DNA from: Candidatus Woesearchaeota archaeon | GTDB lineage: Archaea; Nanobdellota; Nanobdellia; Woesearchaeales; WJKV01 | NCBI GenBank assembly: GCA_014728875.1 | Contig: WJKV01000011.1 | Coordinates: 55-24,054 of the forward strand | Direction of reading: 5' to 3' | DNA: 24,000 nt | Shown here: one piece after another, positions 455 through 24,000 of the stretch | How the letters are laid out: each line of letters starts with the position of its first letter | Position numbering within the stretch: position 1 is the first letter of the stretch | Notes under the pieces: generated by a model | Database searches by the model: none | Seen by the model: the letters and a program-made list of their open reading frames with translations, nothing else | What the model was told of the DNA's origin: nothing | Translations under genes and position numbers: made by a program

Positions 455-477
455 GGAAAATTCCCTTGCAGCCTAGT

Positions 478-2377: not shown

Positions 2378-2403
2378 AAACCGCAATAAAAAAGAGGAGT
2401 CAG

Positions 2404-3975: not shown

Positions 3976-4071
3976 ATGAAGAAAAGAGGTGGAAAGAGTA
4001 GAGTATCAAGATCATTGTTTTTGATTTTTCTCTTCTCACTATTTGTAATTTCAGCCTGTTTTGTTTCTGCA
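3976..4071 (+). other. Sec-type signal peptide of the giant protein (32 aa)
   Basis: Basic n-region (KKRGGKSRVSR), hydrophobic core LFLIFLFSLFVI, and a small-residue site VSA|T. Confidence 0.6.
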
Positions 4072-7000
4072 ACCTGCTGCGTGAATGAGCAGACAAGCTT
4101 CACAAGCACTGCTGTTGATGTTACATGCATTGATAACCTGCCAAGCACACAGTGTTTCAGCGGTTTCTTTTCAAATGCTACAACATGCAAGGATGTCCAG
4201 CAATGCGGCTGTTGTGTCTGCAATTATGGCAGTGCGAATCCTACTGTTTATAAAGGAGGGGATTTGAGGGTCAGCAACAATTTCTGCGCAGCTTTCTGCG
4301 CTCCTTATTCTTATAATCTTATTCCTGGTCTTACAACCGCGTCCTGCAGCCAACAGGAAAATGCGACAGGAATCAGCGGTTATGTTTTTGACAGTGACGG
4401 AAATCCTGTTCACGGCGCACAGGTCACAGAGACAGGGGGAAGCAGTGATGTGACAGATGCGCAGGGCAAGTATAGCTTGTCAGTTTTCCAGCAGACAACA
4501 ACAGTCACCGCTTCAAAGGCGAATGTCCAGAACAACATAAATGTAAATGTCGCAACAAAAAAGACAGGGTGGAACATAACCCTCGATCTGGCAGCAGTGA
4601 GCGCAGATCTCGTCGGAAAGATAACGCCCCTGATAAGCGGTGTTCCGAGTCCGACCCCTTTGTCGAATGTTGTTGTGACTGTGACAGACGGCGTGAATCA
4701 GTTTGCTACAGAGACAGACGTTGCAGGCGAGTACGAATTCATCGCCATACCCATCTCAGACTATGCATTGACAGCCAACAGGTGCGGATTTTTCCCTGAA
4801 AGCGCGCAGGTCTCTGTAACTGCGCCATTGACAAGAAAAGACATCTCATTAAGAAGCGCGCCGCAGGAAACATTGACCGGCGTTGTAAAAGATTTGCAGA
4901 ACCGCCCAGTGAAAGATGCAGATATAGCAATAAGTCCCAAAAGGGGCATTGTCCAGAAAAGCGATGAGCAGGGGATCTATCGGGTGACTAATCTGGACAG
5001 CAATTGCCAGTATACTGTAACTGCTACAAAAGCCCCGCAGTATCAGGACAGCTCAAAAACAAAGAGCATATATGCGACAGATCCATTGACAACAAACACT
5101 CTGGATTTCGTCCTTGAGCCCAGTGTGATGTTTGATTTCTGTACAGATATTGGAGACTGCCGGGGCGAAGATCTCATTCTTGGAACGCCGGATGACTGCG
5201 GCTGTCCGCCCAACTATGTTTGCAATCAATTGACAGGAAACTGTGACAGGAAGCCGACAATCGACTGCTGCGATTATGATTTCCTGTGCCAGCCGCCGCA
5301 GGCCAGGAGCGGAGTCACTGCGCAATGCGGGAGCGAAAAAGAGACTTGCAGCAATGTGTGCGCTGAAATTATTAATTGTCCAGCAGATGAAAAACTGAGC
5401 AATCAGAATACGGACGGCGTCTGCAAATGCGCAGGAGAAACAGTGACCATACTTCAAAGCCTTGCAGACCAGTATGGTTTTGAGAATACAGCAGGCAAAT
5501 ACTGTTGTCCGTTTTCTCCTGTAAGCATCAGCGAAGTGCCGTGCGAATTCCAGCAGAAAGCTGCAATCGTCGGGATTGTTGTGAGCAGGATCGACGGAGA
5601 GCCAATAGACGCAACAGTAACTGCTGATCCCAATACTGCCGGAGAACAAAGCACGATGAGCAGTTCTGTTGACGGTTCATATGTCTTGTTTGTGGACCCA
5701 AATATAGACCATACCATTAATTTTAAACGGCCTCCGCTGTACGAGCCAGAGACAAGAGTTGTCAGGGCTGGGAACCTGGCAGTGGGCGAAACTTTCACTC
5801 TGGATGTCAGTCTTGGAATCGTCGCGCGCACCTGCGACTATCCTTCCACCCCAGAAGTTCCTGATTTTGTAGCTGAAAATGTAGTATGTAAGAACCAGGC
5901 AAGACTTACATGGAACAATGAGTATTGCAGGAATACAGATGGTGTGCAGTCTTTTATAATTACTGCAGATAATTTGAACAAGACCTATGTTGTAAGTCCT
6001 GACAACGACGAACTGATAATAAAAGATCTGGACTGGAACGAACTGTATTCCTTTTCCATACAAGCCAAGTATTCAGATCATAACAGTCCGAGGACGAGCC
6101 GGGCAGTGGCTGTTTCTGGTTTTGATCCTGGAGACGAGGAATGCGATGGCAGGTGCGACAGTGAAGAGTTTTGTCTGGACAATACAAAAAGAAGAATGTG
6201 CGACCAGAACAATCATGTTACTACTGACCTGCTTTCGCCCAACTATTTCCCCGACTGTGAACAGCACCAGCAGACAACAGGCAGCGATTATGCATTTGTC
6301 TGCATCGGCTCCGGCGCGAACAAAAGAACAAAATGCGTGGAACAGAGCAAGTGCGGTTTTGACCTTACAAATCCGGTGCCTTTCTTGGGCCTGCTTTTCA
6401 ACAGCCTCAAGTGTTCAAAGAACCCCGCGACCAAGAATGACAGGGGTTGCTATATGGACAGGTCCGGCAGCGTGAAAAATTTCTGTTATCCTTGTCCTGA
6501 TTCAGAAAACATAACATGTTCGGATTACAAGAGCAAATATGCATGCGAGCAAAACAAGTGTCTTGTGCCAGAAGACTGTATATGGTATTCTCCTGAATTT
6601 ACCGGCATGGGCGAGGGCTTCTGCGTCGACAGCGATACTTTGAGCAAGACAAAATACAAGCAAAGAGAACAGATGACTGTCAATCTTTTGAATGAAACAA
6701 TAAAGCAGAGCAAGTGCAGTCTTTGTTCCAAGCAGGGCAAGATCTTCAATAATGTTGGCTGCGAACAGGACGCATGCAGCAGGCTGGGCTTCTGCTATGC
6801 AGAACTTGACAATAAGAACATAAGCAGCTGCGTGCAGTGCAGTTTCACTCCGCCTGTCACCACTTGCAACGATTTCAAGACAGAAGAAAGTTGTATCAGT
6901 GCGACAGGTGAAAATCAAGAATTCGTTCTATTCTCTTCTTCTCTTCCGGAAAGTGCAAAATACAGCGATGATGCCTGCGGCATCGGAAGATGCATCTGGG

Positions 7001-10000
7001 ACGATCAAAGAAACGGATGTTACAAAGATGGTAACGGTGACGGTCAAGCAGATTGTGTCACTATTGAATTTGGCGTGGAAGCTTTCAACCCGATTTGTGA
7101 GCTTGACATAATTCCTCCAACCACCACGCCAAACAGTGACACATTAATATTAGGAAATGCCTCGGACAGGAACACTGTGAATTTCACAGTGTCTGAGGCC
7201 ATTTCTAATTTTTATTATTGCATATACAAGGAAGGAGGGACCAGGTGTTCTGTAATGAAGAAGATCAGCGGCACAAATTCCAACCGAGTCAAAGGAAATG
7301 TTGTTTCTGTACGGCCTGTGGAAGAGTTTAAGAATGCAATATACAAAGAAGGAAACTACAGGATAAGATATTATGCAGAAGATGCGAGCAAGAACAAGGA
7401 ACTGCTGAAAGAAGTGGCTGTCTTTGTCGATACTAAAAAACCGGGCATCACTATACAGAACCAGTCAGTCTGTGTCAACTGCGATCTTCAGATCGACTGC
7501 AGTGCAGAAGAAAGCTATCTTTCCAAACTGGTGTTGAGCATACAGAGCGATGAACTGGTTGCATGCAAAGCATATTTCATAGAGCCGGGGGACAGTCTCG
7601 AGACAACAACACAGAAATCAGACCTGATGATAGACATTGCAACCAGCGGCATTCTTTCTTATCCGAGGGCCGCAGGAGCCTCTGGCCTGGAAGACGGCAA
7701 TTACAGGCTTTATCTTCAGTGCGAAGATGTGGTGGGAAACGAATTCAAGAAACAGTATTTTTTTAAGATTGACCAGCTGAAAGGAATAAAAAATGTCAAG
7801 CCAGTCGGTCCCATTAAAAACACTGCCGTGCGGTTTGAAGCAGACACTGTCAAACCTTCTGACTGCACTATTTCTGTAGACGGAGGGAGCAGGATAAAGA
7901 TGGACCAGTTGGCCGGCGGCAGAAAGCACGCCCTGGAGAAGAACTTTGTAGAGAATAGTTATCATTATTATAACATAAGATGCGATGAGAAATACAGCAT
8001 AACACCTAACAGATGCGACAGCGAAAGGTACGAATTCTCGATAGATAATAGTGCGCCTGCAACTGTTGCCAGAATTAACGACAGACTCTTTGACGAAGAC
8101 GGCTGGACGATTTTCTTGACTGATCCTGCCATTCTAAAACTTTACTCTACAGATGAAAGCGTCAAACAAAACAGGATACAGTTCGGGGCGGACCATATAG
8201 CGTACTGTTATAGGGAGGATCTTCTGCCGTGCGTGCCAGGACAGAGTGTTAACAGCTACAGGGTTTTTGCAGACGCGCAGTCAGGGACAGCAGAGATAAA
8301 GATTCCTGTGGATAAGAATCTTAAGATGTGCTATCATGCGATCGACAAGGGCGGAAGAAAAGAAACAACCAAGTGCGGCAAGATCTTGTTCACTGTGCCT
8401 CCTTCTGTGGACCTAATTTCGCCTGTGAACGATTATGTGACCAATAAACTGCACATAACAGTGAATGCGACGCATGACGCAGATAATGCGACAGATCCGT
8501 TGATAACAACTTTCAACGGCGAGGATTTCATCGCGGTCGCAGCGCAATTAATCGACAGCCAAATCTACGGGATCTTGACATTCCTGTTCCCGGGCCTTAA
8601 CCGGGTAAGTGCAAGAGTCAGGGACGGTGCCGGCGTCTTCGGAGAAGATACTGTTAATGTGTATTACGACAAGGAAGGCCCTTCTATACAGATGACTTCT
8701 GACGAAGTGATCGAATACAACCAGCCGTTCTTGCTGAGCGCAGAGATCAAGGATCTAGAATGGACCTCCATAGACACTGCTGACAATATCGGGGAAGTGA
8801 CAGATGCCGTGGTCGCAATACAAAGCCCTGTCATGAGCAGGACATACAATATGACAAAACAAGGCTCTATGTGGAGCGCTTACATTGTGCCTTCTGTCGA
8901 TTCTGCAGGCTTTGCAGATTTCCTGCCCGGCAAATACAGCATTACCTTCAATGCAAAAGACGGTTTTGGCAATGAAAATTCAAAGCAGTACGAGATAGAG
9001 ATAAAGGATACGATTCCTGCAAACATCACTATAGATCTTCTGACGCCGAACATTCCTCTGCCTCCTTTCAGGGAAGAGGATGTTTTCTATACGAAAGAAA
9101 GGATGCCTGTCATCCGGGTAAGGACGACAGAGCCTGCAGAATGCCAACTAAGGATAAGTTCTATAGCTCCCACAATAACCGAAGACTTTGTCACAAACGA
9201 CAGCAGGACCCATCTTTTCAGCAGCCAGAACTTGCTGAGCTTCAGTCCTGGAAAAGAACAGAGGTTCAGCGCACAGATTGTATGCAGGGATCTTTTTGCG
9301 CAGACAACACAGGATACGAACATTGTGATAGATTATGATGATGTTGCTCCTAATCTGCAGATATTCAGCAGTGAAGGAAAAAATAAGATACACAAAAAAG
9401 GGACTGTCTACTTATTGTCAGAAAGGAATAATGTCGGAGATCTTTCAACGAGAATCTCTGTGACTGACGCCAGGAGAGGAGAGGAAATAAAGTGCGGTTT
9501 GAACTGTTCAAACAGGGGGAAAAGCTGCGGAACGCATCATCAGAATTCGGTGCTGCCTGTGCTGGGTGAAGACACTTTCAAGCGTGTGCAGGAAGAGATA
9601 ATAGATTATGACCTGGAGGTAGATAAGACAGGCGAGTTTAATTATTTGCTGACATGCACGGATAAAGCCAAAAATGCCGCATCCGGAGAATTTACCATTC
9701 TTGTTGAAAAAGAAGAACCGACAGTCAACCTCACTCTTCCTACTATCGGACCTGAGCCTGGAATAAACCTGCAAAGCGCAGACACTGGCTCGCCTGTGAT
9801 TGCAGACATTGGTGCCAGGACCATCTATAACAAGCTTGGCGTCATAGCCGACAGCCAGAGAGAAAACTACAAAAAATTCATCATAGTGGACGGCAAGTCA
9901 GGCAATACAATACCCGTACAATTGATTGCAGACGTGAGCGAGAGGACTGTCTGTAGGTACAGCACTTCTATGCAGGACTTCAACCAGATGCAGAACAGGT

Positions 10001-13000
10001 TCTCTTCTGATGATTATGTATTTTATCCTAGAACCCCTTATCTGAGCCTTGCTGATGGCAGCACGTATACTTACTATGTCGGCTGCAGGGACGAGGCAGG
10101 AAATCTCGCAGCACCTTATACTGTCGATATTGAAGTGGATCTGCAGGAGCCTGTAAGAATATTTGATGCAGAACCTGCCGGCCATATCAACAATCTGCCT
10201 GTTGTCAATGCTTATACCTACAGAAATGTGCAGTGCACTTATGATCACGGCACAAAGACCGGTCTGCCGATGAGAACGATAAAAACCAGCAAAGGCTACT
10301 TGCATACCTCTGCACAATTCAGCGGAAATGTCTTGTTCGTCCCTGAAGGAACAGAGACTTCTGTTACTATCGATTGCGGGCAGGGCAGCGGTCTATTGCC
10401 TGCGACAGAAACAGTCCGCTTCACAGTCGACAAAACTTCGCCGAATATTGTTTTAAGCAGTCCTGTGCAGGGTCAGGCAGTAGATGCTGTTGTTGTTGAT
10501 CTGACAGGCAGCACAGAACCGTTAAGCGAGATTGATGTATATGTGAACAAGATATTCCATAGAACAATAAAGACAGAAAGAGAGGATTTCGAAGAAGAGA
10601 TATTTCTTGAGAGAGACGGAAATAATATCATTGATTTGTTTGTTATTGACAAGGCAGGCAACAAGGCATTGAAGACTGTTTCAGTCGATGCAAACGGTCC
10701 GAATCTTGCAGTGAAACAGATTGTGCCTGTCAGCGGAAAAATAGGAGATCTTACAGGCATAGTCGCATCCATAGACGGCGATGATTTCAACGAAGAAATG
10801 AGCGAGTTCACAGTTCTGAGGAACGATATAGAGATCAGCGGAGAGCTGTCGTACTCTCCTGAAAGAAATTCGTGGAAATTTGTGCCTGACCAGGGCTATC
10901 TCTCAGACGGAGACTATCTGATAGCCGCCATTCCTGTAAATGATTTTGGAGAGAAAGGTTTTGGAAAGAGAGCAGAGTTTACAGTCCAGGAGGATGCGCC
11001 GAAGATAGAATGGATTTATCCAGAAAAAGAAAATGGTGTTTTGAGCAGCCGGCTCTTAAAACCCGCGGTTGAGTTCAGCACAATAAGTTCTACTGCGCCT
11101 GTCACGGACGCCGAGGTATACGTGCAGAACAGGATCAGGGACGGCACTGGTTTTGACCGGAAAAGATACAATTTTGCAAGAACAAAAGATGATGCGTTCA
11201 CTTCCAAACTTGACATGGCAGAAGGGATCAATTATCTGCGCATCAAGGCAAGAAATTTGTACGGGGAAACTGATTATCTAAGGGGAGTTTTTGTTGACAC
11301 AGCAGGTCCGAGGGCAAATATAGAACCTAAAGGCACAATAACAATGACCCGGCCGGAGATAACTGCGAAGTTTCAGGAAGATGTCAAACTGAAATATTAC
11401 GACCTGATTGAAGTCGGAAGCATACTGCAGAATCTTACAAGAGGAATGAGCGTGACCAAGAAATCCATGAAAGAATACGTATTTGACATAGGCGCGCAGT
11501 TAAGGAGCGGAACTTATCTGTTCACAATAGGTGTAGAAGATGCGTTAGGCAATCCTGAAGAATCACAGCAGGAATTCGTAGTCAATGTCGGCGAACTGGA
11601 TCTTGAACTGCTGAATCCGAAATATGAAGTTAGTCCAGAGCCTGTGTTTGATTTCAGATTGAAGTCCAACCAGGATGCGAACTGCAGATACAGCCAGATT
11701 TACGATTCCGGCGTTCACACTTCGATATATACTTTCAATGGCCTGTTCGACCAGACAGGCCAAGTTATACATGTTATAGAAAACCTTGATACTATAACTG
11801 CTGAATATCCTGGCTACAAGTCTTTCTATGTGTGGTGCGAAAGCGTTCTGTCCAAGACAATTTCGCAGCCTGTGGAATACAGATTGAGCATTGACGAGAC
11901 AAAGCCTGAGATTATAGATCTGTATGCAGAGCCTGCGCCTGTGACAGAACAACCTCTGCAGACGACATTGTACGTTGAAACTGACGACGAAACAAGATGC
12001 AGATTTGAATGCAATACAGATGTCGTTAACTATAACAGCATGGAGAACGAGTTCTCAGAGGAATTCTCCACCACACACAGTGTGGAAATGAATCTTGTGG
12101 ACAAGACCGATTATGAATGCAATATTGCCTGCATGAACCTGGCTGAGCTTGTATCTGAAACAGAAAAATTAGAATTTAAAGCAGATACAGGCCTGGGGGC
12201 GGGTCTCAGGATAGTCTCTCCTGAACATGACAGTGCGTATCCGCCGGGACCTGTAGAACTATTGATAAAAAGCCAGAATCTTGCACAATGCAGCTATACA
12301 TTGGATGATCTGCCCCCTGTAGAATTCCCTGCGATCAGCCGGCAATTCAACACGACATTTGAAGACCTTTTGGAGGGCGAGCATAATCTTGAAGTGAGCT
12401 GTGTTTACAGCGTTGGAAGCGATACAATAAGCAGCACTTTCTATATTGATGATACTCCGCCGTCTGAAATCTGGGTAGAGGACGGAGACTATGCCTGCAG
12501 CGGCAGCCTGATAAATGTTACCTGGGAGGCGGAAGATCCAGAGAGCGGAATACTAGAATATGAGTATGCAGTGAGGAGCGAGCTTTCAGAGGATTATGAT
12601 GTGCGGAACTTCACAAAGACGAAAGCAACAACAGTGGAAACTCCTTTGCAGAACCTTTCTTCCGGCAGGTATTATTTTGCAGTAAGAGCAAAAAACAGGG
12701 CAGGACTGTGGACAGAATTGATAGAAAGCGACGGCGTCCTGGTTGATGATACTCTGAATATCTGCGCAGAAGAAGCGCCGCCAATAGCACAGTTGCAAGT
12801 AGAAGAACTTGCAGGAAAAACTGTTGTATCTATCGTATGCAGTGATGAGAAAACCGGGTGCGCGCCCGATATGTACTATGGCACATCGCCTGACATGGGT
12901 GCCTGCGAACCCGCTCAGCTTTACAATGGAAGCTTAGAGTTGTATGAAACGCAGCAGTTTTGTTATCTTGTCAGCGATCTTGCTGGAAACGAAGTGACCG

Positions 13001-14499
13001 GAGAAGAGACTATAATTGTACTGCCTGCGGAACTGGTGGGCTGTCCAAACGATCTTGACTGCGACGAGATAATAAATGAAGAGGATCCTGACATTGACGG
13101 CGACGGCATCCTGAATTGTGAAGACGACGATGATGATAACGACGGCATCCTGGACTATGACCTCGCGACTAATTACAATACCGATTTTGATGATGATAAC
13201 GACGGCGTGAATGATGATTTAGATTATCATACAAACAATGATCTTGACCTGGACGGCCTGCCTAACGGCGTGGACGATGATGACGATTGCGACGGAATTA
13301 GTGACTGCGATGATCCTGACGATGACAATGACGGGATATTGGATGTAGATGATCTGGATGACGATAACGACGGTGTTCCTGATGTTGATGATCAAGATTC
13401 AGGAGCTTCCCTGACACCAGATGACGACAACGATCTGGACGATGACGGGATCTCTAATGCAATAGACGAAGACATTGACGGAGACGGGATCCTGAACGAG
13501 GACGACGCTGACATGGACAATGACGGCGTTCCCGACTGCATTGATCAGGACAATGACAATGACGGAATCCTGGACAAGGAAGATCCGGATTACAGCGATG
13601 ATTTTGACGAGGACGGTTTGCCCAACAGGTGGGAGGAACAATACGGTCTGGACAAGGTGAACAGTGCAGATGCAGGCATGGACAACGACAATGACGGTTT
13701 GAAGAATGTAGACGAATTCAAGTTTAAGACAAATCCTTTGAATAAAGACACCGACGAGGACGGGCACACTGATTACGACGAGCTGTTCAAATATGAAGAA
13801 CAGTACGATCCTGCAGATCCTGAGAGCAAACCGCCGAGCAGGTTCCTGTTCTATCTCATACTTGTGATAATCCTTTTAATCGTAGGTTTCATTGGATATT
13901 ATGGTTATCAGATCTTGTATGTCAAACGAAAAGAGAAATTGGCAGCAAAAAGGGCAGAGGAACAAAGAAGATTGAGAGAAGAAGCAAGAAGAAAGGCGGT
14001 GCCGCCTCCGAAGCCGGCAAAGAAGCCAGCCAAAGCAGCAGCGCCTGCGCCCCCTAAACCGAAGAAGCTTTCTCCGCTGGAAAAAAGAATCTTGAAGATG
14101 AAAAGGATCAGGGAGCAGAGACGAAAGGAAAGAGAAGAGATGAGAGATAGACTGTTCGGCAAGTTTGAGACTGCTGAAGAAAAGAAAAAAGAGAAAGAAA
14201 AGGAGAAGAAAGCTGAAAAGAAGCCTGAAGAAAAAGCAGAAAAGAAAGAAAAACCAAAGAAAGCTGAGCTGAAGAAGAAGCCCGCTAAACCTGCAAAACC
14301 TGCCCTGGCTCCAGAGTTCAAGAAACTGAGCCAGATGGTGAAAAAAGGCAGGAAAATAAAGACGATCGCCCAAAAATTAGAAGACTTGAAGATGCCCAAG
14401 AAAAAGGTTGACAGGCTGGGCGAGCTCATAGAAAAAAGAAGAGGCAAAAAAGCCAAGGACAAGTTTGATGAACTTGTTGCGCTCAAGAAAAAGAGATGA
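3976..14499 (+). CDS. Giant (3507 aa) modular cell-surface protein, putative adhesin, type I membrane topology
   Basis: Uninterrupted 10.5 kb ORF. Sec signal MKKRGGKSRVSRSLFLIFLFSLFVISACFVSA|TCC, then multiple beta-sandwich modules, Cys-rich segments and an Asp-rich Ca-binding repeat array. A single C-terminal TM (FLFYLILVIILLIVGFIGYYGYQILYV) is followed by KRKEK, consistent with the positive-inside rule, and a long charged tail. I found no HExxH, GDSGG or other catalytic signature. Confidence 0.92.
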   Translation: MKKRGGKSRVSRSLFLIFLFSLFVISACFVSATCCVNEQTSFTSTAVDVTCIDNLPSTQCFSGFFSNATTCKDVQQCGCCVCNYGSANPTVYKGGDLRVSNNFCAAFCAPYSYNLIPGLTTASCSQQENATGISGYVFDSDGNPVHGAQVTETGGSSDVTDAQGKYSLSVFQQTTTVTASKANVQNNINVNVATKKTGWNITLDLAAVSADLVGKITPLISGVPSPTPLSNVVVTVTDGVNQFATETDVAGEYEFIAIPISDYALTANRCGFFPESAQVSVTAPLTRKDISLRSAPQETLTGVVKDLQNRPVKDADIAISPKRGIVQKSDEQGIYRVTNLDSNCQYTVTATKAPQYQDSSKTKSIYATDPLTTNTLDFVLEPSVMFDFCTDIGDCRGEDLILGTPDDCGCPPNYVCNQLTGNCDRKPTIDCCDYDFLCQPPQARSGVTAQCGSEKETCSNVCAEIINCPADEKLSNQNTDGVCKCAGETVTILQSLADQYGFENTAGKYCCPFSPVSISEVPCEFQQKAAIVGIVVSRIDGEPIDATVTADPNTAGEQSTMSSSVDGSYVLFVDPNIDHTINFKRPPLYEPETRVVRAGNLAVGETFTLDVSLGIVARTCDYPSTPEVPDFVAENVVCKNQARLTWNNEYCRNTDGVQSFIITADNLNKTYVVSPDNDELIIKDLDWNELYSFSIQAKYSDHNSPRTSRAVAVSGFDPGDEECDGRCDSEEFCLDNTKRRMCDQNNHVTTDLLSPNYFPDCEQHQQTTGSDYAFVCIGSGANKRTKCVEQSKCGFDLTNPVPFLGLLFNSLKCSKNPATKNDRGCYMDRSGSVKNFCYPCPDSENITCSDYKSKYACEQNKCLVPEDCIWYSPEFTGMGEGFCVDSDTLSKTKYKQREQMTVNLLNETIKQSKCSLCSKQGKIFNNVGCEQDACSRLGFCYAELDNKNISSCVQCSFTPPVTTCNDFKTEESCISATGENQEFVLFSSSLPESAKYSDDACGIGRCIWDDQRNGCYKDGNGDGQADCVTIEFGVEAFNPICELDIIPPTTTPNSDTLILGNASDRNTVNFTVSEAISNFYYCIYKEGGTRCSVMKKISGTNSNRVKGNVVSVRPVEEFKNAIYKEGNYRIRYYAEDASKNKELLKEVAVFVDTKKPGITIQNQSVCVNCDLQIDCSAEESYLSKLVLSIQSDELVACKAYFIEPGDSLETTTQKSDLMIDIATSGILSYPRAAGASGLEDGNYRLYLQCEDVVGNEFKKQYFFKIDQLKGIKNVKPVGPIKNTAVRFEADTVKPSDCTISVDGGSRIKMDQLAGGRKHALEKNFVENSYHYYNIRCDEKYSITPNRCDSERYEFSIDNSAPATVARINDRLFDEDGWTIFLTDPAILKLYSTDESVKQNRIQFGADHIAYCYREDLLPCVPGQSVNSYRVFADAQSGTAEIKIPVDKNLKMCYHAIDKGGRKETTKCGKILFTVPPSVDLISPVNDYVTNKLHITVNATHDADNATDPLITTFNGEDFIAVAAQLIDSQIYGILTFLFPGLNRVSARVRDGAGVFGEDTVNVYYDKEGPSIQMTSDEVIEYNQPFLLSAEIKDLEWTSIDTADNIGEVTDAVVAIQSPVMSRTYNMTKQGSMWSAYIVPSVDSAGFADFLPGKYSITFNAKDGFGNENSKQYEIEIKDTIPANITIDLLTPNIPLPPFREEDVFYTKERMPVIRVRTTEPAECQLRISSIAPTITEDFVTNDSRTHLFSSQNLLSFSPGKEQRFSAQIVCRDLFAQTTQDTNIVIDYDDVAPNLQIFSSEGKNKIHKKGTVYLLSERNNVGDLSTRISVTDARRGEEIKCGLNCSNRGKSCGTHHQNSVLPVLGEDTFKRVQEEIIDYDLEVDKTGEFNYLLTCTDKAKNAASGEFTILVEKEEPTVNLTLPTIGPEPGINLQSADTGSPVIADIGARTIYNKLGVIADSQRENYKKFIIVDGKSGNTIPVQLIADVSERTVCRYSTSMQDFNQMQNRFSSDDYVFYPRTPYLSLADGSTYTYYVGCRDEAGNLAAPYTVDIEVDLQEPVRIFDAEPAGHINNLPVVNAYTYRNVQCTYDHGTKTGLPMRTIKTSKGYLHTSAQFSGNVLFVPEGTETSVTIDCGQGSGLLPATETVRFTVDKTSPNIVLSSPVQGQAVDAVVVDLTGSTEPLSEIDVYVNKIFHRTIKTEREDFEEEIFLERDGNNIIDLFVIDKAGNKALKTVSVDANGPNLAVKQIVPVSGKIGDLTGIVASIDGDDFNEEMSEFTVLRNDIEISGELSYSPERNSWKFVPDQGYLSDGDYLIAAIPVNDFGEKGFGKRAEFTVQEDAPKIEWIYPEKENGVLSSRLLKPAVEFSTISSTAPVTDAEVYVQNRIRDGTGFDRKRYNFARTKDDAFTSKLDMAEGINYLRIKARNLYGETDYLRGVFVDTAGPRANIEPKGTITMTRPEITAKFQEDVKLKYYDLIEVGSILQNLTRGMSVTKKSMKEYVFDIGAQLRSGTYLFTIGVEDALGNPEESQQEFVVNVGELDLELLNPKYEVSPEPVFDFRLKSNQDANCRYSQIYDSGVHTSIYTFNGLFDQTGQVIHVIENLDTITAEYPGYKSFYVWCESVLSKTISQPVEYRLSIDETKPEIIDLYAEPAPVTEQPLQTTLYVETDDETRCRFECNTDVVNYNSMENEFSEEFSTTHSVEMNLVDKTDYECNIACMNLAELVSETEKLEFKADTGLGAGLRIVSPEHDSAYPPGPVELLIKSQNLAQCSYTLDDLPPVEFPAISRQFNTTFEDLLEGEHNLEVSCVYSVGSDTISSTFYIDDTPPSEIWVEDGDYACSGSLINVTWEAEDPESGILEYEYAVRSELSEDYDVRNFTKTKATTVETPLQNLSSGRYYFAVRAKNRAGLWTELIESDGVLVDDTLNICAEEAPPIAQLQVEELAGKTVVSIVCSDEKTGCAPDMYYGTSPDMGACEPAQLYNGSLELYETQQFCYLVSDLAGNEVTGEETIIVLPAELVGCPNDLDCDEIINEEDPDIDGDGILNCEDDDDDNDGILDYDLATNYNTDFDDDNDGVNDDLDYHTNNDLDLDGLPNGVDDDDDCDGISDCDDPDDDNDGILDVDDLDDDNDGVPDVDDQDSGASLTPDDDNDLDDDGISNAIDEDIDGDGILNEDDADMDNDGVPDCIDQDNDNDGILDKEDPDYSDDFDEDGLPNRWEEQYGLDKVNSADAGMDNDNDGLKNVDEFKFKTNPLNKDTDEDGHTDYDELFKYEEQYDPADPESKPPSRFLFYLILVIILLIVGFIGYYGYQILYVKRKEKLAAKRAEEQRRLREEARRKAVPPPKPAKKPAKAAAPAPPKPKKLSPLEKRILKMKRIREQRRKEREEMRDRLFGKFETAEEKKKEKEKEKKAEKKPEEKAEKKEKPKKAELKKKPAKPAKPALAPEFKKLSQMVKKGRKIKTIAQKLEDLKMPKKKVDRLGELIEKRRGKKAKDKFDELVALKKKR
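4072..4371 (+). other. Cys-rich N-terminal head domain
   Basis: TCCVNEQ...VTCIDNLPSTQCFSGFFSNATTCKDVQQCGCCVCNYG...FCAAFCAP...ASCSQQ: many Cys within about 100 aa directly after the signal peptide. Confidence 0.5.
4372..5130 (+). repeat. Three tandem CarboxypepD_reg-like beta-sandwich modules
   Basis: ISGYVFDSDGNPVHGAQVTETGGSSDVTDAQGKYSLSV; LVGKITP...LSNVVVTVTDGVNQFATETDVAGEYEFIAIP; LTGVVKDLQNRPVKDADIAISPKRGIVQKSDEQGIYRVTNL. Each fits the family signature G-x-V-x-D-x-x-G-x-P-[IV]-x-x-A-x-[IV]...[TS]D-x-x-G-x-[YF]. Confidence 0.65.
5131..5565 (+). other. Cys-rich linker/knot segment
   Basis: FDFCTDIGDCRGEDLILGTPDDCGCPPNYVCNQLTGNCDRKPTIDCCDYDFLCQPP...QCGSEKETCSNVCAEIINCPADE...GVCKCAGE...KYCCPF...VPCEF. 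Confidence 0.5.
5566..5830 (+). other. Fourth CarboxypepD_reg-like module
   Basis: IVGIVVSRIDGEPIDATVTADPNTAGEQSTMSSSVDGSYVLFV matches the same signature as the modules at 4372..5130. Confidence 0.55.
5845..6120 (+). other. Fibronectin type III-like module
   Basis: PEVPDFVAENVVCKNQARLTWNNE...VQSFIITADNLNKTYVVSPDNDELIIKDLDWNELYSFSIQAKYSDHNSP shows the classic FN3 landmarks: P at the start, LxW, Y-x-[FV]-x-[IV]-x-A. Confidence 0.55.
6139..7098 (+). other. Extended Cys-rich region (31 Cys in about 320 aa by my count) with an internal duplicated motif
   Basis: ECDGRCDSEEFC...MCDQ... through ...NPIC. Two copies of a [IT]TC-x-D-[YF]-K-x(4)-C...C-I-W motif: ITCSDYKSKYACEQNKCLVPEDCIW (about 6508..6590) and TTCNDFKTEESCISATG...ACGIGRCIW (about 6862..7010). 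Confidence 0.5.
7110..12456 (+). repeat. About 16 divergent Ig-like beta-sandwich modules (roughly 90-200 aa each)
   Basis: A boundary motif hydrophobic-x-[IV]-[DE]-x(2,3)-P-x-[IV] recurs at about 7420 (VFVDTKKPGITI), 8035 (FSIDNSAPATV), 8660 (VYYDKEGPSIQM), 8995 (IEIKDTIPANITI), 9322 (IVIDYDDVAPNLQI), 9700 (ILVEKEEPTVNL), 10420 (FTVDKTSPNIVL), 10680 (VSVDANGPNLAV), 10978 (FTVQEDAPKIEW), 11288 (VFVDTAGPRANI), 11883 (LSIDETKPEIIDL) and 12440 (FYIDDTPPSEIWV). Weaker boundaries are at about 8400, 10125, 11575 and 12170. Many modules also carry an early C-[RQST]-[YFL] and a late Y-x-[YFL]-x-[VIA]-x-C-x-D-x-x-G-N pair. Confidence 0.6.
12457..12750 (+). other. FN3/Ig-like module with W-x-A-x-D-x-x-SGI-x-x-Y signature
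   Basis: PPSEIWVEDGDYACSGSLINVTWEAEDPESGILEYEYAVRSE...LSSGRYYFAVRAKNRAGLWTELIESDGVLVDD. Confidence 0.55.
13042..13788 (+). repeat. Thrombospondin type 3-like Asp-rich Ca-binding repeat array (about 14 D-x-D-x-D-G-x-x-[DN] units)
   Basis: DPDIDGDGILNCED, DDDNDGILDYD, DDDNDGVNDDLD, DLDLDGLPNGVDDD, DDCDGISDCDD, DDDNDGILDVDD, DDDNDGVPDVDD, DDDNDLDDDGISNAIDE, DIDGDGILNEDD, DMDNDGVPDCID, DNDNDGILDKED, DFDEDGLPNRWEEQYGLD, DNDNDGLKNVDEFKFKTNPLNKD, DTDEDGHTDYDELF. At the DNA level there are repeated GAYGAYGAYAAYGACGG units. Confidence 0.75.
13843..13923 (+). other. C-terminal transmembrane anchor of the giant protein
   Basis: FLFYLILVIILLIVGFIGYYGYQILYV is 27 uncharged hydrophobic residues, followed immediately by KRKEK. 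Confidence 0.75.
13924..14496 (+). other. About 190-aa Lys/Glu/Arg/Ala/Pro-rich low-complexity cytoplasmic tail (histone H1/AKP-repeat-like composition)
   Basis: KRKEKLAAKRAEEQRRLREEARRKAVPPPKPAKKPAKAAAPAPPKPKK...EEKKKEKEKEKKAEKKPEEKAEKKEKPKKAELKKKPAKPAKPALAP...KRRGKKAKDKFDELVALKKKR. The DNA at about 14175..14285 is a strongly purine-rich tract on the + strand. Confidence 0.7.
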
Positions 14500-17357: not shown

Positions 17358-17374
17358 AAATTTTTGTTGAAAAA

Positions 17375-19677: not shown

Positions 19678-19982
19678 TGAACAAAAAAGGACAAGGCTTA
19701 TCATTGAGTGTTATTATTATTGCCATTCTTGCAATCTTGGTATTGGTTGTTCTTGCAGTGATATTCACAGGTAAAACAGGACAGATCACAACCAAGATAG
19801 AGAAAGGCTGCATAGAGAACGGAGGACAGTGCGTCGACAGGGACGAATACATCTCATGTGACGAGCCTGCTTTGAACATGGTTGATGTCGAAAGAATGGG
19901 CTATAAATGCGCCAATCCTGACCAGTACATGTGCTGCGCGTCTGAAGCGATTGCTGCATCCCTGAGAACAAGAGAGCAGTAA
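19674..19982 (+). CDS. Small class III signal-peptide pilin-like protein with Cys-rich C-terminal domain, 102 aa (candidate filament subunit)
   Basis: MMNKKG|QGLSLSVIIIAILAILVLVVLAVIFTG, then GCIENGGQCVDRDEYISCDEP...YKCANPDQYMCCAS. AGAGGTG SD-like motif is 7 nt upstream. ATGA overlap with the preceding gene. Confidence 0.8.
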   Translation: MMNKKGQGLSLSVIIIAILAILVLVVLAVIFTGKTGQITTKIEKGCIENGGQCVDRDEYISCDEPALNMVDVERMGYKCANPDQYMCCASEAIAASLRTREQ

Positions 19983-20048: not shown

Positions 20049-20336
20049 ATGGGGAAAAAGAGAGTTGATAAGAAAGGGCAGGGACTGCCTTTGAGTGTAA
20101 TAATAATTCTGATAATCGCTGCTATTACTCTTGTTGTTGTGATTGCAATTTTTACCAGGCAGGCGCACAAAGGAGAGCAGCGATTGGATGCAATAACAAA
20201 CCCGATAGAATACAAGGCAGCATGCTTGAACCAGAATCAGATGGAATATGAAGAATGCGTGGGATTCTGCAAAAAGTCTGCAGAAGAAAATCAAAGAGAA
20301 GAGATTTGCGTGCTGGTCAAAGAAAAGCCAAAATAG
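20049..20336 (+). CDS. Small class III signal-peptide pilin-like protein, 95 aa (paralogous N-terminus to the 19674 gene; candidate filament subunit)
   Basis: MGKKRVDKKG|QGLPLSVIIILIIAAITLVVVIAIFTRQ has the same KKGQGL[SP]LSVIII start as the 19674 gene. The C-terminal part contains 4 Cys (ACLNQ...ECVGFC...ICV). Confidence 0.8.
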   Translation: MGKKRVDKKGQGLPLSVIIILIIAAITLVVVIAIFTRQAHKGEQRLDAITNPIEYKAACLNQNQMEYEECVGFCKKSAEENQREEICVLVKEKPK

Positions 20337-20344
20337 CATGAACT

Positions 20345-21040
20345 ATGAAAAAAAACAAAAAAGCTCAATTAGACTGGTTCGTAAAGGAATTAGGAGTATT
20401 GGTATTGGTGATCATCATTGCATTTGTCATATTCGCTTTGGGAACCAAGATATATAAATCGTTCTCTCCTACGCAGAGCGCAGAGATCAGCCTGCAGCTT
20501 CTCGCAGACGGCAGTGAGATTCTTGTGAATGGAACATACACAAAAGGCTATAATATTTCAAAGTGTTTCACCAATTTTGCATTGGAGAATGATGAAGCTC
20601 TTGTTGGCTTCAATGTCGGAAGGGACACCAGCAGAAAATACAACAGGCCCGAGCCCAGCGTGTGTCCCATGCAGTTCAGCTGTCTTGTCATCTGCGACCA
20701 AGGGGGCTGGACAAGAAGAAATATACTGGGGCCCGGCAGCGACATGTGCAAAGAGGATTCGCGGCTGGAGCATAAACTAGTGAGGAATGTAAGAAATTTC
20801 TATTATCTTAGGAAAGGCAGCTGGGAAGACCTGAATTATTTCGGAGACGAAGGAAGGGTAGAAACCTGGGTCCTGGAAAGAATAGGGAGCCCTGGCAACT
20901 GGAACATAAGAATAAAAGAAGGAGATATTGCAGGACTGAAAGCGTGCGAAAATCTCAAGATCTTGCCCAGGATAACAATCGCGCAGACCACAACGACAGC
21001 AGCAGGCACTGCAGCCAAAACAGCAGGCGCCGGAAATTAA
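20345..21040 (+). CDS. Class III-like signal-peptide protein, 231 aa
   Basis: MKKNKKA|QLDWFVKELGVLVLVIIIAFVIFALG. The first 20 nt (ATGAAAAAAAACAARAAAGC) are nearly identical to the start of the 18365 gene. Thr/Ala-rich C-terminus: TTTTAAGTAAKTAGAGN. Confidence 0.78.
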   Translation: MKKNKKAQLDWFVKELGVLVLVIIIAFVIFALGTKIYKSFSPTQSAEISLQLLADGSEILVNGTYTKGYNISKCFTNFALENDEALVGFNVGRDTSRKYNRPEPSVCPMQFSCLVICDQGGWTRRNILGPGSDMCKEDSRLEHKLVRNVRNFYYLRKGSWEDLNYFGDEGRVETWVLERIGSPGNWNIRIKEGDIAGLKACENLKILPRITIAQTTTTAAGTAAKTAGAGN

Positions 21041-21084: not shown

Positions 21085-22023
21085 ATGAGGATATTTTCTG
21101 AAAAAAGAGGCATAATAAGCGAGCAGTTGTTTATGATATTCAGTCTTATTGTAGTTGTGATATTCACCATTGTTGCAGTAAGATATACCAATGGCCTGGC
21201 AACAGACCTGCTCTTCAAGCAGGATTATTATGCTCACGACATATCTTTTTTGATTGCGACCAGCATAGGCGCGCCAGGGATAGTCATTTATGATTATTCT
21301 ATAAGTGAGGATGCAAAATTCACTATAGATTCAGCTTTTGTCAATATCGCTCTGAAAGATGAAGAAACACAGCAGAGAGCATTACAGTATTTGTCGCCTT
21401 CTAAATATTATCACATAAACAAGGCTGATTTTGAGTTCAAGACTGCAGAAGACCTTACAAAACTGCAATTAATGAATTATGACGAAGAGTTCGTTGCCAC
21501 GCAGCCTGTTTATTACACCGATGAAGAGCTGGACTGCATGCAGTACTTGAATTATGATTCTAAATCAGACATCAACAGCAAAAAAATTGTGATTGATCCT
21601 GGAAGGGGCGGGAGTGATGGCGGTATCAAAGAAGAAGACAACAAAGACCAGAACCTGCAGAAAGGAAAGAACTTGTTCGCCGCCCTGGGCGGACAGCTGG
21701 CAGCAGGCCCTTCTGTCGTGATGACGCGGGACAGGGATGTTTCTGTTTCCCAGGAAGAACGGAACAATATTGTCGGAGACATGTTCATCAGCATACACGG
21801 CCTTCATAAGAAAAAGAACGAAGAGATTGTAATCGGAAAACCCACAAGAGAGAACAAGAAGCTTGCTTGCTTGCTGTCGAAAGAACTAGGAATAGAGCAG
21901 GTCAGACAGGCATCCGACAACTACATCGAAAACAATCCGTCTTCAATCACAGTCGCACTGTATCTCGGCCCCGGGAAGCATGCGAACGCAATTGCAAATA
22001 GTGTGAGGTCTTATTATGTTTAG
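21085..22023 (+). CDS. Class III signal-peptide protein fused to an Amidase_3 (N-acetylmuramoyl-L-alanine amidase)-like domain, probably degenerate
   Basis: N-terminus MRIFSEKRG|IISEQLFMIFSLIVVVIFTIVAV. The C-terminal part (about 21586..22015) is IVIDPGRGGSDGG...LFAALGGQLAAGPSVVMTRDRDVSVSQEERNNIVGDMFISIHGL...KKLACLLSKELG...ITVALYLGPG. It tracks the Amidase_3 consensus ivIDpGHGGxDpGa...V.ltR..D..vsL.eR...an...aDlfiSiHaNa...s..LA..i...l...avLvElgf, but has R in place of the GHGG His (codon 21604..21606). Confidence 0.7.
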   Translation: MRIFSEKRGIISEQLFMIFSLIVVVIFTIVAVRYTNGLATDLLFKQDYYAHDISFLIATSIGAPGIVIYDYSISEDAKFTIDSAFVNIALKDEETQQRALQYLSPSKYYHINKADFEFKTAEDLTKLQLMNYDEEFVATQPVYYTDEELDCMQYLNYDSKSDINSKKIVIDPGRGGSDGGIKEEDNKDQNLQKGKNLFAALGGQLAAGPSVVMTRDRDVSVSQEERNNIVGDMFISIHGLHKKKNEEIVIGKPTRENKKLACLLSKELGIEQVRQASDNYIENNPSSITVALYLGPGKHANAIANSVRSYYV

Positions 22024-22537
22024 GATGAACAAGAAAGGATTCACATTCAACCAGCTTTTTAAACTGCTTGAACTGGCTTTTCTTCTAATCATTATCCTGT
22101 CATTCGTTTTTTTGACAAGACACACTGTGCAGAAAAGCACAGACACCAGCAGTGCAGAAGCGTATTCTTATCTTCACAGCATGCTGTATTCAAAGAACGG
22201 CATTTTATACCATGATTCAGACATAGACAGGCAGTATCCCGGAATAATAGATGTTAGTAGATTCAATGACATCTATCTGGACAGCAGTATGCTGCTGAAC
22301 CTCTCAGAGAATGTCGAGCTGCCTGCTGCAAAGCTCGCCCTGCTTGACCAGAGCGGCATGGTTAGGGAGGCATACTGGCATAAGAAATGGTACGATAGAC
22401 TTTATCCAAAAGCAGGCGGCAGAGGTGTCGGAAGCCCGAGACAGCTCTATCAGGACCTTTATGTCCTGAAAAGAACAGCAGGAGGAAGGCTTGAACCTGC
22501 GTATCTTTCAATAGAGCTGATAGTGCCGAGAAGATAA
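22016..22537 (+). CDS. Class III signal-peptide (pilin-like) protein, 173 aa
   Basis: MFRMNKKG|FTFNQLFKLLELAFLLIIILSFVFL. GAGGT at 22005..22009 is 6 nt upstream of the ATG at 22016, which overlaps the upstream gene by 8 nt. An alternative ATG is at 22025. Confidence 0.78.
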   Translation: MFRMNKKGFTFNQLFKLLELAFLLIIILSFVFLTRHTVQKSTDTSSAEAYSYLHSMLYSKNGILYHDSDIDRQYPGIIDVSRFNDIYLDSSMLLNLSENVELPAAKLALLDQSGMVREAYWHKKWYDRLYPKAGGRGVGSPRQLYQDLYVLKRTAGGRLEPAYLSIELIVPRR

Positions 22538-22572
22538 AAATACATCTTTGAAAAAGGAAAAATAAAAGGAAA

Positions 22573-23187
22573 ATGAGAAAAAAGTTATTCAGAAACAAGA
22601 AAGGAGCAATATCGAACGTTTTTGAACTGATCGCATCTGTGATATACTATTTAGTGCTGTTCACTATATTCATGGTTCTTTTTTCTTATATGGCCGCCAT
22701 ATTGGAATACAAGCTTGACAGCAATTATCTTTATTTTTCGAATGACATTTCTGCGTCAAGCTATTTGAAAACCCCTTTAAGCTTTGACCCTGACATGACA
22801 GTATATGATGTAATCCAGAAATCTGCAGCAGACCAGGATTATGCAAAGATAGGGGCGGAGACCAACAGACTCTTTTCTCCTTTCAAGAACAAGTTCTGGC
22901 ATGTGATGTTGTGGGAGCTGCAGCCTGACAACTCCGGCAAGAGCGAGAAAAGCAAAATACTGGACTATTACAAGGAAAAGGCTTCTTATGAAGTTTTGAT
23001 AGCAGAAGACAATAAACCGCAGCAGGTGGCTGATTTGAACAGCAGACAATTACTGAACATTGCCAAGCAGGGCGAAAGGCCTAGCTGGGAAAATTTCCAG
23101 AAGATGTTCGTGTTCAGACAGATTCCTTTAGAGATGAATGGAGTGCAAAAGGAAGCCTTGTTCGTATTCGCACTGGGTGATTCATGA
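22573..23187 (+). CDS. Class III signal-peptide (pilin-like) protein, 204 aa
   Basis: MRKKLFRNKKG|AISNVFELIASVIYYLVLFTIFMVLF. AAAGGA lies 4 nt upstream. Confidence 0.78.
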   Translation: MRKKLFRNKKGAISNVFELIASVIYYLVLFTIFMVLFSYMAAILEYKLDSNYLYFSNDISASSYLKTPLSFDPDMTVYDVIQKSAADQDYAKIGAETNRLFSPFKNKFWHVMLWELQPDNSGKSEKSKILDYYKEKASYEVLIAEDNKPQQVADLNSRQLLNIAKQGERPSWENFQKMFVFRQIPLEMNGVQKEALFVFALGDS

Positions 23188-24000
23188 TGAGATTAGTCAG
23201 AAACAAAAAAGCAGTATTGAGCTTCTTTCTGGTAGTTGTTGCCACATTCGTATTCGCTTATGCATATTTCAAGCTGGGCGGAACAGTCGGCCCTGTGACA
23301 AAACTGGTAGGAAACAATGAATTCGTTCTTGTCCAGCAGTATGAGAAAGGGGAAGCTGCCAGGCTCTACCTTGACCTGGCTGCGCATAACAGCAAGAACA
23401 AGGCGTTGTATCTTTTCGAGCAGAACGGCCATTTTCCAGACTGCGGCAAGAACGGCTTGTACTTTTTTTGGAAAAATGAAGACAATACATGCTATCCCAC
23501 AGACCATTCGATTTCAAACGGCCTGAGCACTGTGTTTATCCGGCTGCTGAATCCTTATGTCAAGAATTATAAAAAGATCTTGTTGCCAGAATTTTCTTCT
23601 GCGGACTTGGCATTCAACTTGGCAGAAAAGAAACTGATTGCGTATCCTTTCAACAGCATCAATATAAGCTCAAACCCTCGTTATCTGATAAATCCTGGAT
23701 TTTCAGTGAATCTCAATCATGATTTTGATTACAAGAAAATAAAAGAATTTATAGAAGGCGTGAACAATGAATGCAGAAATCTGCAGGATTTGAATGTTGT
23801 TGGAAAAACTGAATTAAGCAGTTGCGTGGCTGGTTATGTAGATAAATTCAACAAACAAAACAGCCAGATAAGGATCGAGCAGGACTGCGGGCCTGATGCG
23901 CAGATGGACAGGTTCATCGAAGATTATAAATTGTGCGCAGAAAGCCTGGACAGGGGCTGCTACTGCGAGATTGACCTGTCCTTCGACAAAAGCGGGTTGA
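23184..24000 (+). CDS. Class III-like signal-peptide protein, partial (first 272 aa; continues past the window end)
   Basis: Not in the ORF track because there is no stop in the window. My translation from the ATG at 23184 (ATGA overlap with the upstream stop; GGGTGA 4 nt upstream) is MMRLVRNKKA|VLSFFLVVVATFVFAYAYFKLGGTVGPVTKLVGNNEFVLVQQYEKGEAARLYLDLAAHNSKNKALYLFEQNGHFPDCGKNGLYFFWKNEDNTCYP...DRGCYCEIDLSFDKSGL, open to position 24000. Confidence 0.75.
   Translation, partial: MMRLVRNKKAVLSFFLVVVATFVFAYAYFKLGGTVGPVTKLVGNNEFVLVQQYEKGEAARLYLDLAAHNSKNKALYLFEQNGHFPDCGKNGLYFFWKNEDNTCYPTDHSISNGLSTVFIRLLNPYVKNYKKILLPEFSSADLAFNLAEKKLIAYPFNSINISSNPRYLINPGFSVNLNHDFDYKKIKEFIEGVNNECRNLQDLNVVGKTELSSCVAGYVDKFNKQNSQIRIEQDCGPDAQMDRFIEDYKLCAESLDRGCYCEIDLSFDKSGL

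Follow-up and report, generated by a model that had tools for sequence, protein, structure and literature searches.

What is a protein with the fold of a murein amidase doing on the surface of an archaeon? The question is raised by a gene near the right-hand end of a 24,000-nucleotide (nt) stretch of DNA, the whole of which was analyzed here and is called the window, from a metagenome-assembled genome (MAG) of Candidatus Woesearchaeota. Woesearchaeota are tiny symbiotic archaea. Archaea make no murein, and Amidase_3 enzymes cut the bond between N-acetylmuramic acid (MurNAc) and L-alanine in the murein of bacteria. An earlier reading of the sequence by eye (the original prediction) held that the gene joins a pilin-like N-terminus to an Amidase_3 fold with substituted metal and catalytic residues, and that its product is either a catalytically dead, murein-binding module displayed on a filament or surface tether, or a fold repurposed as structure. 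The reading we prefer, to which we give a probability of roughly 0.6, is that the protein is a pseudoenzyme and a fixed subunit of a conserved Woesearchaeota surface system, with a structural or adaptor role favored.

Results

The gene encodes a complete Amidase_3 fold in an archaeon

The open reading frame (ORF) lies where the original prediction had placed it, and every segment quoted from it is present in the translation (Table 1). NCBI has an identical protein, GF371_00425, which is annotated as hypothetical and assigned to a MAG of Candidatus Woesearchaeota. An archaeal host is supported further by an RNase P p30 subunit gene in the window (466-1113, with a TTG start called), which serves as an archaeal marker for the contig, and by genes for RPA and RadA that, in relatives, lie beyond the syntenic operon described below. 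Searches of the window for tRNA genes and with Rfam gave no matches.

Pfam recognized Amidase_3 (PF01520) at amino acids (aa) 168-284 with E=2.8e-9 and 37.7 bits, above the gathering cut-off of 27, in a match that spans only profile positions 1-126 of 174. The top NCBIfam match was CwlD (TIGR02883, 6e-8), far under the equivalog cut-off, and the sequence matches in PDB were LytH (7tj4, E=1.5e-6), 4rn7 and Cwp6. An AlphaFold2 model (AF2), for which a 71-sequence alignment was the input, reached a predicted local distance difference test score (pLDDT) of 92.9 and a predicted template modeling score (pTM) of 0.82. When the C-terminal half of this model was compared by Foldseek with LytH, AmiP, 4rn7 and CwlV, E values ranged from 1e-9 to 1e-7 at a probability of 1.00, with target-based template modeling scores (TMt) of 0.60-0.70 (0.68 for LytH) over ~175 residues, a similarity well in excess of what chance would give. 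Because these alignments cover the targets over essentially their whole length, we regard the Amidase_3 fold as complete despite the partial match to the Pfam profile. Both the profile search and the superposition on CwlV-type structures bear out the assignment that had been made by eye.

Three of 4 essential active-site positions are replaced

LytH binds its metal through H128, E145 and H193, with D195 in addition, and members of the family conserve the His/Glu/His set (PMC9245657). CwlD has H49, E65 and H133 as ligands and E199 as its catalytic residue; the single substitutions H49A, E65A and E199A each abolish function (PMC8496864). We observed that the first Zn-ligand His is represented by R174 in every alignment, that the column of the late catalytic Glu holds Y293, and that the His of the SIH motif, H238, is the only residue left of the H/E/H/E set, all as originally described. 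One of the earlier assignments had to be changed. The Glu ligand had been equated with the Gln of DQNLQKGKNL (Q192), and a pairwise alignment with LytH is the only evidence that supports this; the pairwise alignment with 4rn7 and the MAFFT family alignments place N186 at the position instead. An ungapped 21-residue match to the relative P0006 (EKSFTLNSAKQAYSWLGGNLG vs NKDQNLQKGKNLFAALGGQLA) likewise puts N186 in the Glu-ligand column, and the helix at residues 187-200 of the model begins just after N186, as would fit that column. Under either alignment the position is not Glu. Proper alignments give R/N/H/Y, then, where an ordinary active amidase would show H/E/H/E intact.

Neither the Zn triad His/Glu/His expected of a functional amidase (here R174/N186/H238) nor the catalytic Glu (here Y293) is present, and L240 stands 2 residues after the third ligand, where true enzymes have Asp or Asn. 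With 3 of the 4 essential positions replaced, canonical Zn-dependent amidase activity is therefore very unlikely. The description of the protein as a catalytically dead Amidase_3 fold is well supported by its sequence. Across the 4-member clade made up of the window protein and its closest homologs, R174, H238 and Y293 are invariant, and position 186 is Asn in the window protein and Asp in the other 3 members. The DPGRGG, SIH and MTRD motifs are kept in this clade, the active-site region being altered by point substitutions alone.

An anchored family in which the active site has repeatedly been lost

A profile search run exhaustively over 1.84 billion representatives returned 359 matches, ~29 of which share the N-terminal module; the remainder are ordinary amidases that match aa 160-240 only. 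The H/E/H/E set is intact in 8 of the 29 family members and not intact in the other 21, which comprise a single H/E/H/Q member, the 4 R/[N,D]/H/Y members of the window clade, and 16 with other degenerate patterns, including some in which deletions cover motif 1. H/E/H is kept in all 42 bacterial-type sequences of the same alignment. Pfam still recognizes Amidase_3 in 12 of 46 family sequences. The archaeal anchored Amidase_3 architecture, which the original prediction did not know to be described, is not peculiar to this gene but defines a family, and archaeal MAGs already list its intact members as N-acetylmuramoyl-L-alanine amidase. The family is a clear case of an Amidase_3 fold that has turned into a pseudoenzyme more than once.

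The features that the family does keep are of another kind. In an alignment of 24 full-length members (A4), C151 and C262 are invariant whatever the catalytic state; the N.KLACLL motif, in which C262 lies, and a C-terminal YY are kept across the alignment, with K259 of N.KLACLL present in nearly all 24. Aligned bacterial amidases have no Cys at either of the 2 positions. As judged from this conservation, a C151-C262 disulfide probably staples the N-terminal module (N-module) to the amidase-like domain.

The dead domain is under purifying selection

We compared nonsynonymous and synonymous change (dN/dS) with orthologs in 2 other Woesearchaeota MAGs, L002 (70% identity) and L003 (55%); a genome scan with the narrow family alignment found 2 Woesearchaeota genomes only. 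For the amidase-like domain, the proportion of nonsynonymous differences (pN) was 0.16-0.27 and that of synonymous differences (pS) was 0.67-0.84, at which synonymous sites are saturated. The lower values (pN 0.16, pS 0.67) are those for L002, and dN/dS was ~0.1 where computable. Identity of the amidase-like domain was 72% with L002 and 58% with L003, and that of the beta module was lower, at 60% and 44%, respectively. The reading frame is unbroken in the 3 MAGs. Because purifying selection is this strong, we consider the protein a pseudoenzyme and not a gene in decay.

The N-terminal half is a predicted folded module with a possibly pilin-like build

The N-terminus begins MRIFSEKRG/IISEQLFMIFSLIVVVIFTIVAV, where the slash marks a putative cleavage site. 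By its sequence it resembles a class III signal, as the original prediction had proposed: a short basic leader ending in Gly/Ala (KRG/IISEQ) precedes a hydrophobic helix of ~20 residues, and Kyte-Doolittle (KD) hydrophobicity peaks at 2.83 at residue 14. In the model, helices at residues 11-39 and 42-62 have pLDDT >90, the first half being of the kind seen in transmembrane (TM) segments or filament cores, and residues 66-139 form an 8-strand sheet with pLDDT ~90 whether modeled in the full protein or alone. What had been taken for a linker of about 140 aa is instead a confidently folded, family-conserved helix-plus-sheet module, which in its predicted form recalls the general build of a pilin (long helix plus sheet).

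Four tests (Pfam, NCBIfam, Foldseek against PDB, and an N-module profile against PDB) placed the module in no known pilin family. No pilin or class-III-signal profile matched the window protein in Pfam or NCBIfam, its 45 relatives in Pfam, or 10 neighboring operon proteins in Pfam or NCBIfam. The isolated N-module, compared with PDB by Foldseek, gave a best E value of 0.24 and no pilin; an N-module-only profile run against all PDB sequences gave chance matches only, and the beta-sheet part had no Pfam, NCBIfam or PDB match. Because every test of pilin membership was negative, our label "pilin-like" rests on motif, secondary structure and gene context.

The gene belongs to a conserved operon of similarly anchored proteins

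From position 14506 to the end of the window there are 14 close-packed + strand genes, with gaps of -8 to 139 nt, behind the gene for a giant surface protein. Twelve of the 14 start with a basic stretch, then [KR][GA], few polar residues and a hydrophobic helix, as in KKRG/QIEARIV, KKG/AIEVQ, NKKG/FTFNQLFKLLE and KKG/QGLSLSVIIIA, and the leader pattern [KR][KR][GA] is found in most operon genes at 4 loci. Gene order is identical in L002 and L003, and wherever contigs extend far enough for it to be read the same order can be recognized in the distant loci L004/L005, L006/L007, L008, L009, L011, L012, L013 and L014: the giant protein, small anchored proteins, the amidase-like gene, genes for ~170 and ~190 aa, a gene that we call the carrier, RPA, sometimes YdjM, and RadA. 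Upstream context differs in L010 (the locus of P0059), and the contig of P0019 is too short for gene context to be read. Beyond the carrier, RPA, in several cases with YdjM and RadA, is present in most of the loci that reach that far. These conserved housekeeping neighbors argue for vertical inheritance and against a mobile island. Nor was there any sign of a phage origin, no PHROG match having been obtained for 10 operon proteins.

The giant protein has a signal peptide, 4 CarboxypepD_reg domains, Big_13, fn3, a C-terminal TM helix and a Lys-rich tail, together with long Asp-rich repeats of the DxDxDG type; its counterparts upstream in L006, L012, L013 and L014 reach 5589 aa.

The carrier holds exchangeable murein-hydrolase cassettes in other lineages

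Carriers are homologous across loci in their first ~130 residues and then again further on. Between these regions lies an insertion slot at ~aa 190-320, the content of which varies by lineage, with all cassettes at the one slot (Table 1). Catalytic motifs are intact in the SLT, M23 and NlpC/P60 plus Amidase_3 cassettes. In the window operon no hydrolase was detectable, its carrier being covered only up to the window end. Murein hydrolases of different classes have thus been recruited repeatedly by organisms that have no murein, and the simplest explanation is that they act on the walls of bacteria. A strict coupling between death of the amidase and an empty slot was clean over 6 lineages and was broken by further loci; cassettes occur in 3 of 4 lineages with an intact amidase and 1 of 5 with a degenerate one, which is a trend only.

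Table 1. Positions of the features described. Coordinates are those of the window unless another locus is named.
Feature	Coordinates	Strand	Basis or content
Whole gene, 312 aa: anchor, N-module and Amidase_3-like pseudoenzyme	21085..22023, stop codon included	+	ORF, Pfam, AlphaFold, Foldseek
Basic leader MRIFSEKRG, class-III-signal-like, putative cleavage after G9	21085..21111	+	Sequence; [KR][KR][GA] pattern recurs in operon genes
Long kinked helix, aa 10-62, hydrophobic then amphipathic half	21112..21270	+	AF2; KD hydrophobicity
Beta-sheet part of N-module, aa 63-145, family motif APG..Y.Y	21271..21519	+	Model; alignments A4-A6
Connecting helix with C151	21520..21564	+	C151 invariant in 24 family members
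C151 codon	21535..21537	+	Invariant in 24 members
Amidase_3-like domain, aa 161-312, complete fold	21565..22020	+	Pfam aa 168-284; Foldseek superposition on LytH, AmiP, CwlV
R174 codon AGG, in place of Zn-ligand His 1	21604..21606	+	Alignments
N186 codon AAC, at Zn-ligand Glu position	21640..21642	+	Family alignments; ungapped match to P0006
H238 codon CAC, sole retained Zn ligand, SIH motif	21796..21798	+	Alignments
C262 codon in N.KLACLL helix, family-specific	21868..21870	+	Invariant in 24 members
Y293 codon TAT, in place of catalytic Glu	21961..21963	+	Alignments
Giant 3507-aa surface protein, operon head	3976..14499	+	Counterparts in L006, L012, L013, L014
Upstream operon genes, 11 ORFs of 62-361 aa, 9 with basic [KR][GA] leader and hydrophobic helix	14506..21040	+	Sequence; same order in L002, L003
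Two downstream genes, 173 and 204 aa, NKKG/FTFNQLFKLLE and NKKG/AISNVFEL	22016..23187	+	Sequence
Carrier gene, 3 positions downstream of the amidase-like gene, cut by window end	23184..24000	+	Homology across loci
Carrier of L004/L005, 722 aa	L004 12132-14300		SLT, E=1.7e-20; ES, GLMQ, AYNSG present
Carrier of L012, 663 aa	L012 11966-13957		Peptidase_M23, E=1.1e-16; HEGTD, HLH present
Carrier of L011, 553+ aa	L011 10945-12603		NlpC/P60-CHAP, then second Amidase_3 with H/E/H/E (E=4.5e-23)
Carrier of L008, 777 aa	L008 7374-9707		Glucosaminidase-like, under Pfam cut-off
Carriers of window, L003, L006, L009, L013, L014, 272+ to 480 aa			No cassette
Post-carrier region	L003 12279-13298; L004 14676-17743; L006 13049-15751		RPA, several with YdjM and RadA
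Post-carrier region	L008 9770-13997; L009 10490-11506; L012 16341-20972		RPA, several with YdjM and RadA

Other features of the operon

Successive operon genes overlap at 22016-22023 (8 nt), 23184-23187 (4 nt) and 19674-19677 (4 nt), other junctions being separated by 0-8 nt, and these overlapping or close junctions suggest translational coupling. Three small proteins of 82-102 aa (19429-19677, 19674-19982 and 20049-20336) are candidates for the major subunits of the putative filament. Two of them combine a leader of the form KKG/QGLSLSVIIIA or KKG/QGLPLSVIIIL with a Cys-rich tail, a motif also found in L004, L006 and L008; in a search of PDB sequences with a small candidate subunit, the only match was to bacterial PilA, at a non-significant E=9.3. 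A 323-aa operon protein (17354-18325) has an N-terminal anchor and, at its C-terminus, a hydrophobic segment rich in Gly and Ala (GLGILGAGGGYAAGCLAGS...GAGAGGAAGAGVGYGAGV), the latter conserved also in L002. Upstream of the giant protein, the ORF listed at 2257-3888 overlaps the preceding gene; the true start is likely to be the ATG at 2404 (MKKG/QVTLFIIIG...), from which the product would have the same type of leader and helix.

In L004/L005 a 711-aa anchored protein with tetratricopeptide repeats (TPR, E ~1e-11 to 1e-12) is encoded at 7819-9954, directly upstream of an amidase with the tetrad intact. LytH is activated by the TPR domain of ActH (PMC9245657). The L004/L005 protein may be an analogous amidase activator, or the resemblance may be a coincidence; no TPR was found in the window counterpart (20345-21040, 231 aa).

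Discussion

A proposed structural or adaptor subunit and its alternatives

We propose that the protein couples a class-III-signal-like anchor and a helix-plus-sheet module to a complete Amidase_3 fold, the two parts probably being held together by the disulfide between C151 and C262. With R174, N186 and Y293 in place of the residues concerned and H238 alone remaining, this fold would have lost the canonical way of binding zinc and activating water. The pseudoenzyme would be one fixed subunit of a surface apparatus in which ~15 similarly anchored proteins stand behind a giant adhesin-like protein. In other lineages the corresponding subunit is an intact amidase, next to a carrier with interchangeable murein hydrolases, and there the apparatus would presumably cut bacterial peptidoglycan at cell-cell contact. 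In the lineage of the window the subunit would have been kept for a non-catalytic job, most likely that of a structural part or adaptor within the complex; it might still dock on murein-like ligands. Surface display, assembly into a filament or complex, and ligand binding are, like the disulfide, what we infer for this protein. A structural or adaptor role is favored because the conservation seen family-wide concerns non-catalytic features and because most members are degenerate.

Several observations weigh against this proposal. Searches of the 24-kb window detected neither a pilin, whether by family or by fold, nor a prepilin peptidase, an assembly ATPase or a platform protein, and the words "apparatus" and "filament" are drawn only from synteny and N-terminal motifs. 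L012 pairs a degenerate Y/E/V/E amidase with an intact M23 cassette, and L006 pairs an intact amidase with no cassette. Also, an active site altered by point substitutions only, as read from the sequence, would fit retained ligand binding equally well. That last point leads to the reading in which the protein would be a non-catalytic murein receptor or adhesin, its dead groove binding a MurNAc-peptide and tethering the archaeon to a bacterial partner, much as non-catalytic peptidoglycan recognition proteins bind in animals. We think this rather unlikely, though there is something to be said for it: the motifs of the active-site scaffold are kept and the chemistry-bearing residues alone are swapped, purifying selection is strong, and relatives in the same operon slot are murein hydrolases, so that the ancestral ligand would have been murein. 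Yet most family members are far more degenerate, some of them with deletions over motif 1, and are conserved all the same, which implies a role that needs no groove; and with no hydrolase detectable in the window operon (its carrier being cut at the window end) a bacterial target is not implied. For the same reason, that no hydrolase is detectable in this lineage's operon, recognition of a bacterial partner is only one possibility among several. The link to bacterial walls made in the original prediction is thus supported indirectly, by the 8 H/E/H/E relatives and by the cassettes of related operons, and not by the operon of this lineage. As to its 2 interpretations, a dead module displayed on a filament holds up in its first part, 3 of the 4 residues being substituted and each of these being essential in CwlD; display on a filament, its second part, is putative, the N-module having matched no pilin family. 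What the family shows agrees somewhat better with the alternative, a fold repurposed as structure: degeneration has affected 21 of 29 members, several of which have active-site deletions, and the non-catalytic invariants are kept.

Returning to the structural or adaptor subunit, we note that how it is held at the surface is a separate question. It could be a plain membrane-anchored protein of the LytH/CwlD type, with an uncleaved signal anchor that stays in the archaeal membrane and no filament. The top matches, LytH and CwlD, are indeed amidases tethered to the membrane at their N-termini and dependent on partners, and all pilin-family tests were negative; however, [KR][KR][GA] recurs just before the helix in ~15 consecutive genes and at 4 distant loci, and the prediction is confidently of a long continuous helix and a sheet, not of a TM helix with a flexible linker. 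On balance we regard a plain anchor as somewhat doubtful. The invariance of R174, H238 and Y293 in the window clade, which shows that the new residues are themselves constrained, could be taken to indicate an enzyme with altered chemistry or another substrate, such as pseudomurein or an amide bond in a glycoprotein, that works through these residues. Such an enzyme is very improbable: H49A, E65A and E199A each kill CwlD, and 3 such positions have changed together here; moreover, the degenerate patterns of other members are wholly different, resembling relaxed catalytic constraint more than a new active site. We know of no Amidase_3 protein that works without the H/E/H metal site. Loss of the catalytic residues and the annotation "hypothetical protein" are what would be expected of a decaying remnant with no function, an idea that is hardly credible given a conserved operon position, a dN/dS of ~0.1 and a frame intact in 3 MAGs at 55-70% identity despite saturated synonymous sites.

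Relation to known systems

LytH of Staphylococcus aureus and CwlD of Clostridioides difficile and Bacillus subtilis are membrane-tethered Amidase_3 enzymes that need a partner (ActH and GerS, respectively). The window protein resembles them in its predicted layout, a membrane tether at the N-terminus and then an Amidase_3 domain outside the cytoplasm, and in its multi-protein setting. It differs in having R/N/H/Y where they have H/E/H and the catalytic Glu intact, in its additional 150-aa folded N-module and 2 family-specific Cys residues, and in belonging to an archaeon, an organism without murein of its own. Modular type IV pilins are a second point of reference: Streptococcus sanguinis PilB carries a von Willebrand factor A (vWA) module and PilC a lectin module (PMC8179133). 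Here also a class-III-type N-terminus and a small helix-plus-sheet module bear a grafted functional module, among pilin-like genes, although the N-module matches no pilin family or fold and the filament is putative. The survey of modular pilins took in proteins that have the pilin domain IPR012902 and confines its discussion to bacteria; its main text does not use the words amidase, peptidoglycan or archaea (PMC8179133).

Loss of catalysis in a murein-hydrolase fold has precedents. The LytM factors EnvC, NlpD and DipM are catalytically inactive (PMC10336132). Like the window protein, they have a murein-hydrolase fold without the metal ligands, kept for a non-catalytic role among autolysins; unlike it, they have the M23 fold, are bacterial, act on their own wall and have a demonstrated regulatory role, whereas here the fold is Amidase_3 and any such role is putative. 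The non-catalytic peptidoglycan recognition proteins (PGRPs) of animals, in which an Amidase_2 fold lacks a Zn ligand, are peptidoglycan sensors in peptidoglycan-free organisms. Their binding has been demonstrated, whereas binding by the window protein, which is of the Amidase_3 fold, is putative.

Also close in subject is a report of GH23 lytic murein transglycosylases in Woesearchaeota as evidence of predation (PMC9723730; mentioned in PMC12352652, which treats archaeal peptidoglycan hydrolases in general). It concerns the same phylum and the same idea of an archaeal attack on murein, and the SLT-bearing carrier of L004/L005 is probably of the kind reported there as GH23 (PMC9723730); the window lineage differs in being without SLT. 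Pilin is not mentioned in the main text of either paper, and the sole mention of amidase is in PMC12352652, as part of a generic list; term searches of the 2 papers brought up no passage on the operon, on pilin-like anchors or on cassette swapping (PMC9723730, PMC12352652). The words amidase and murein are likewise absent from a 2026 survey of archaeal type-4-filament systems, and a keyword search of open-access text found no description of the operon, the anchored Amidase_3 family or the cassette slot.

Significance

The hosts of DPANN archaea and their mechanisms of attack or attachment are largely unknown, and there is no cultured Woesearchaeota system. The gene described here opens the way to a conserved operon in which murein hydrolases are combined with pilin-like surface subunits in murein-free organisms, and it provides a concrete genetic marker for archaeon-bacterium interaction. 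Genomes reveal both whether the amidase has its catalytic residues and what the carrier slot contains, and this information could serve to predict which lineages target bacteria. A bolder extension, which we put forward tentatively and think unlikely in its entirety, is that the operon encodes a vertically inherited, type-IV-filament-like organelle for breaching walls, composed of the giant adhesin, ~15 pilin-like subunits, a built-in Amidase_3 subunit and a carrier subunit whose slot accepts murein hydrolases of 5 families in exchange for one another, and that in lineages such as that of the window it has been disarmed, with a dead amidase and an empty slot, and the machine kept. If this were true, the disarmed organelle would indicate that murein-free hosts had taken the place of bacterial prey or hosts, or that mere attachment had replaced lysis. 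And if the N-module should prove to be a pilin, the design principle of the modular pilin would be extended to archaea.

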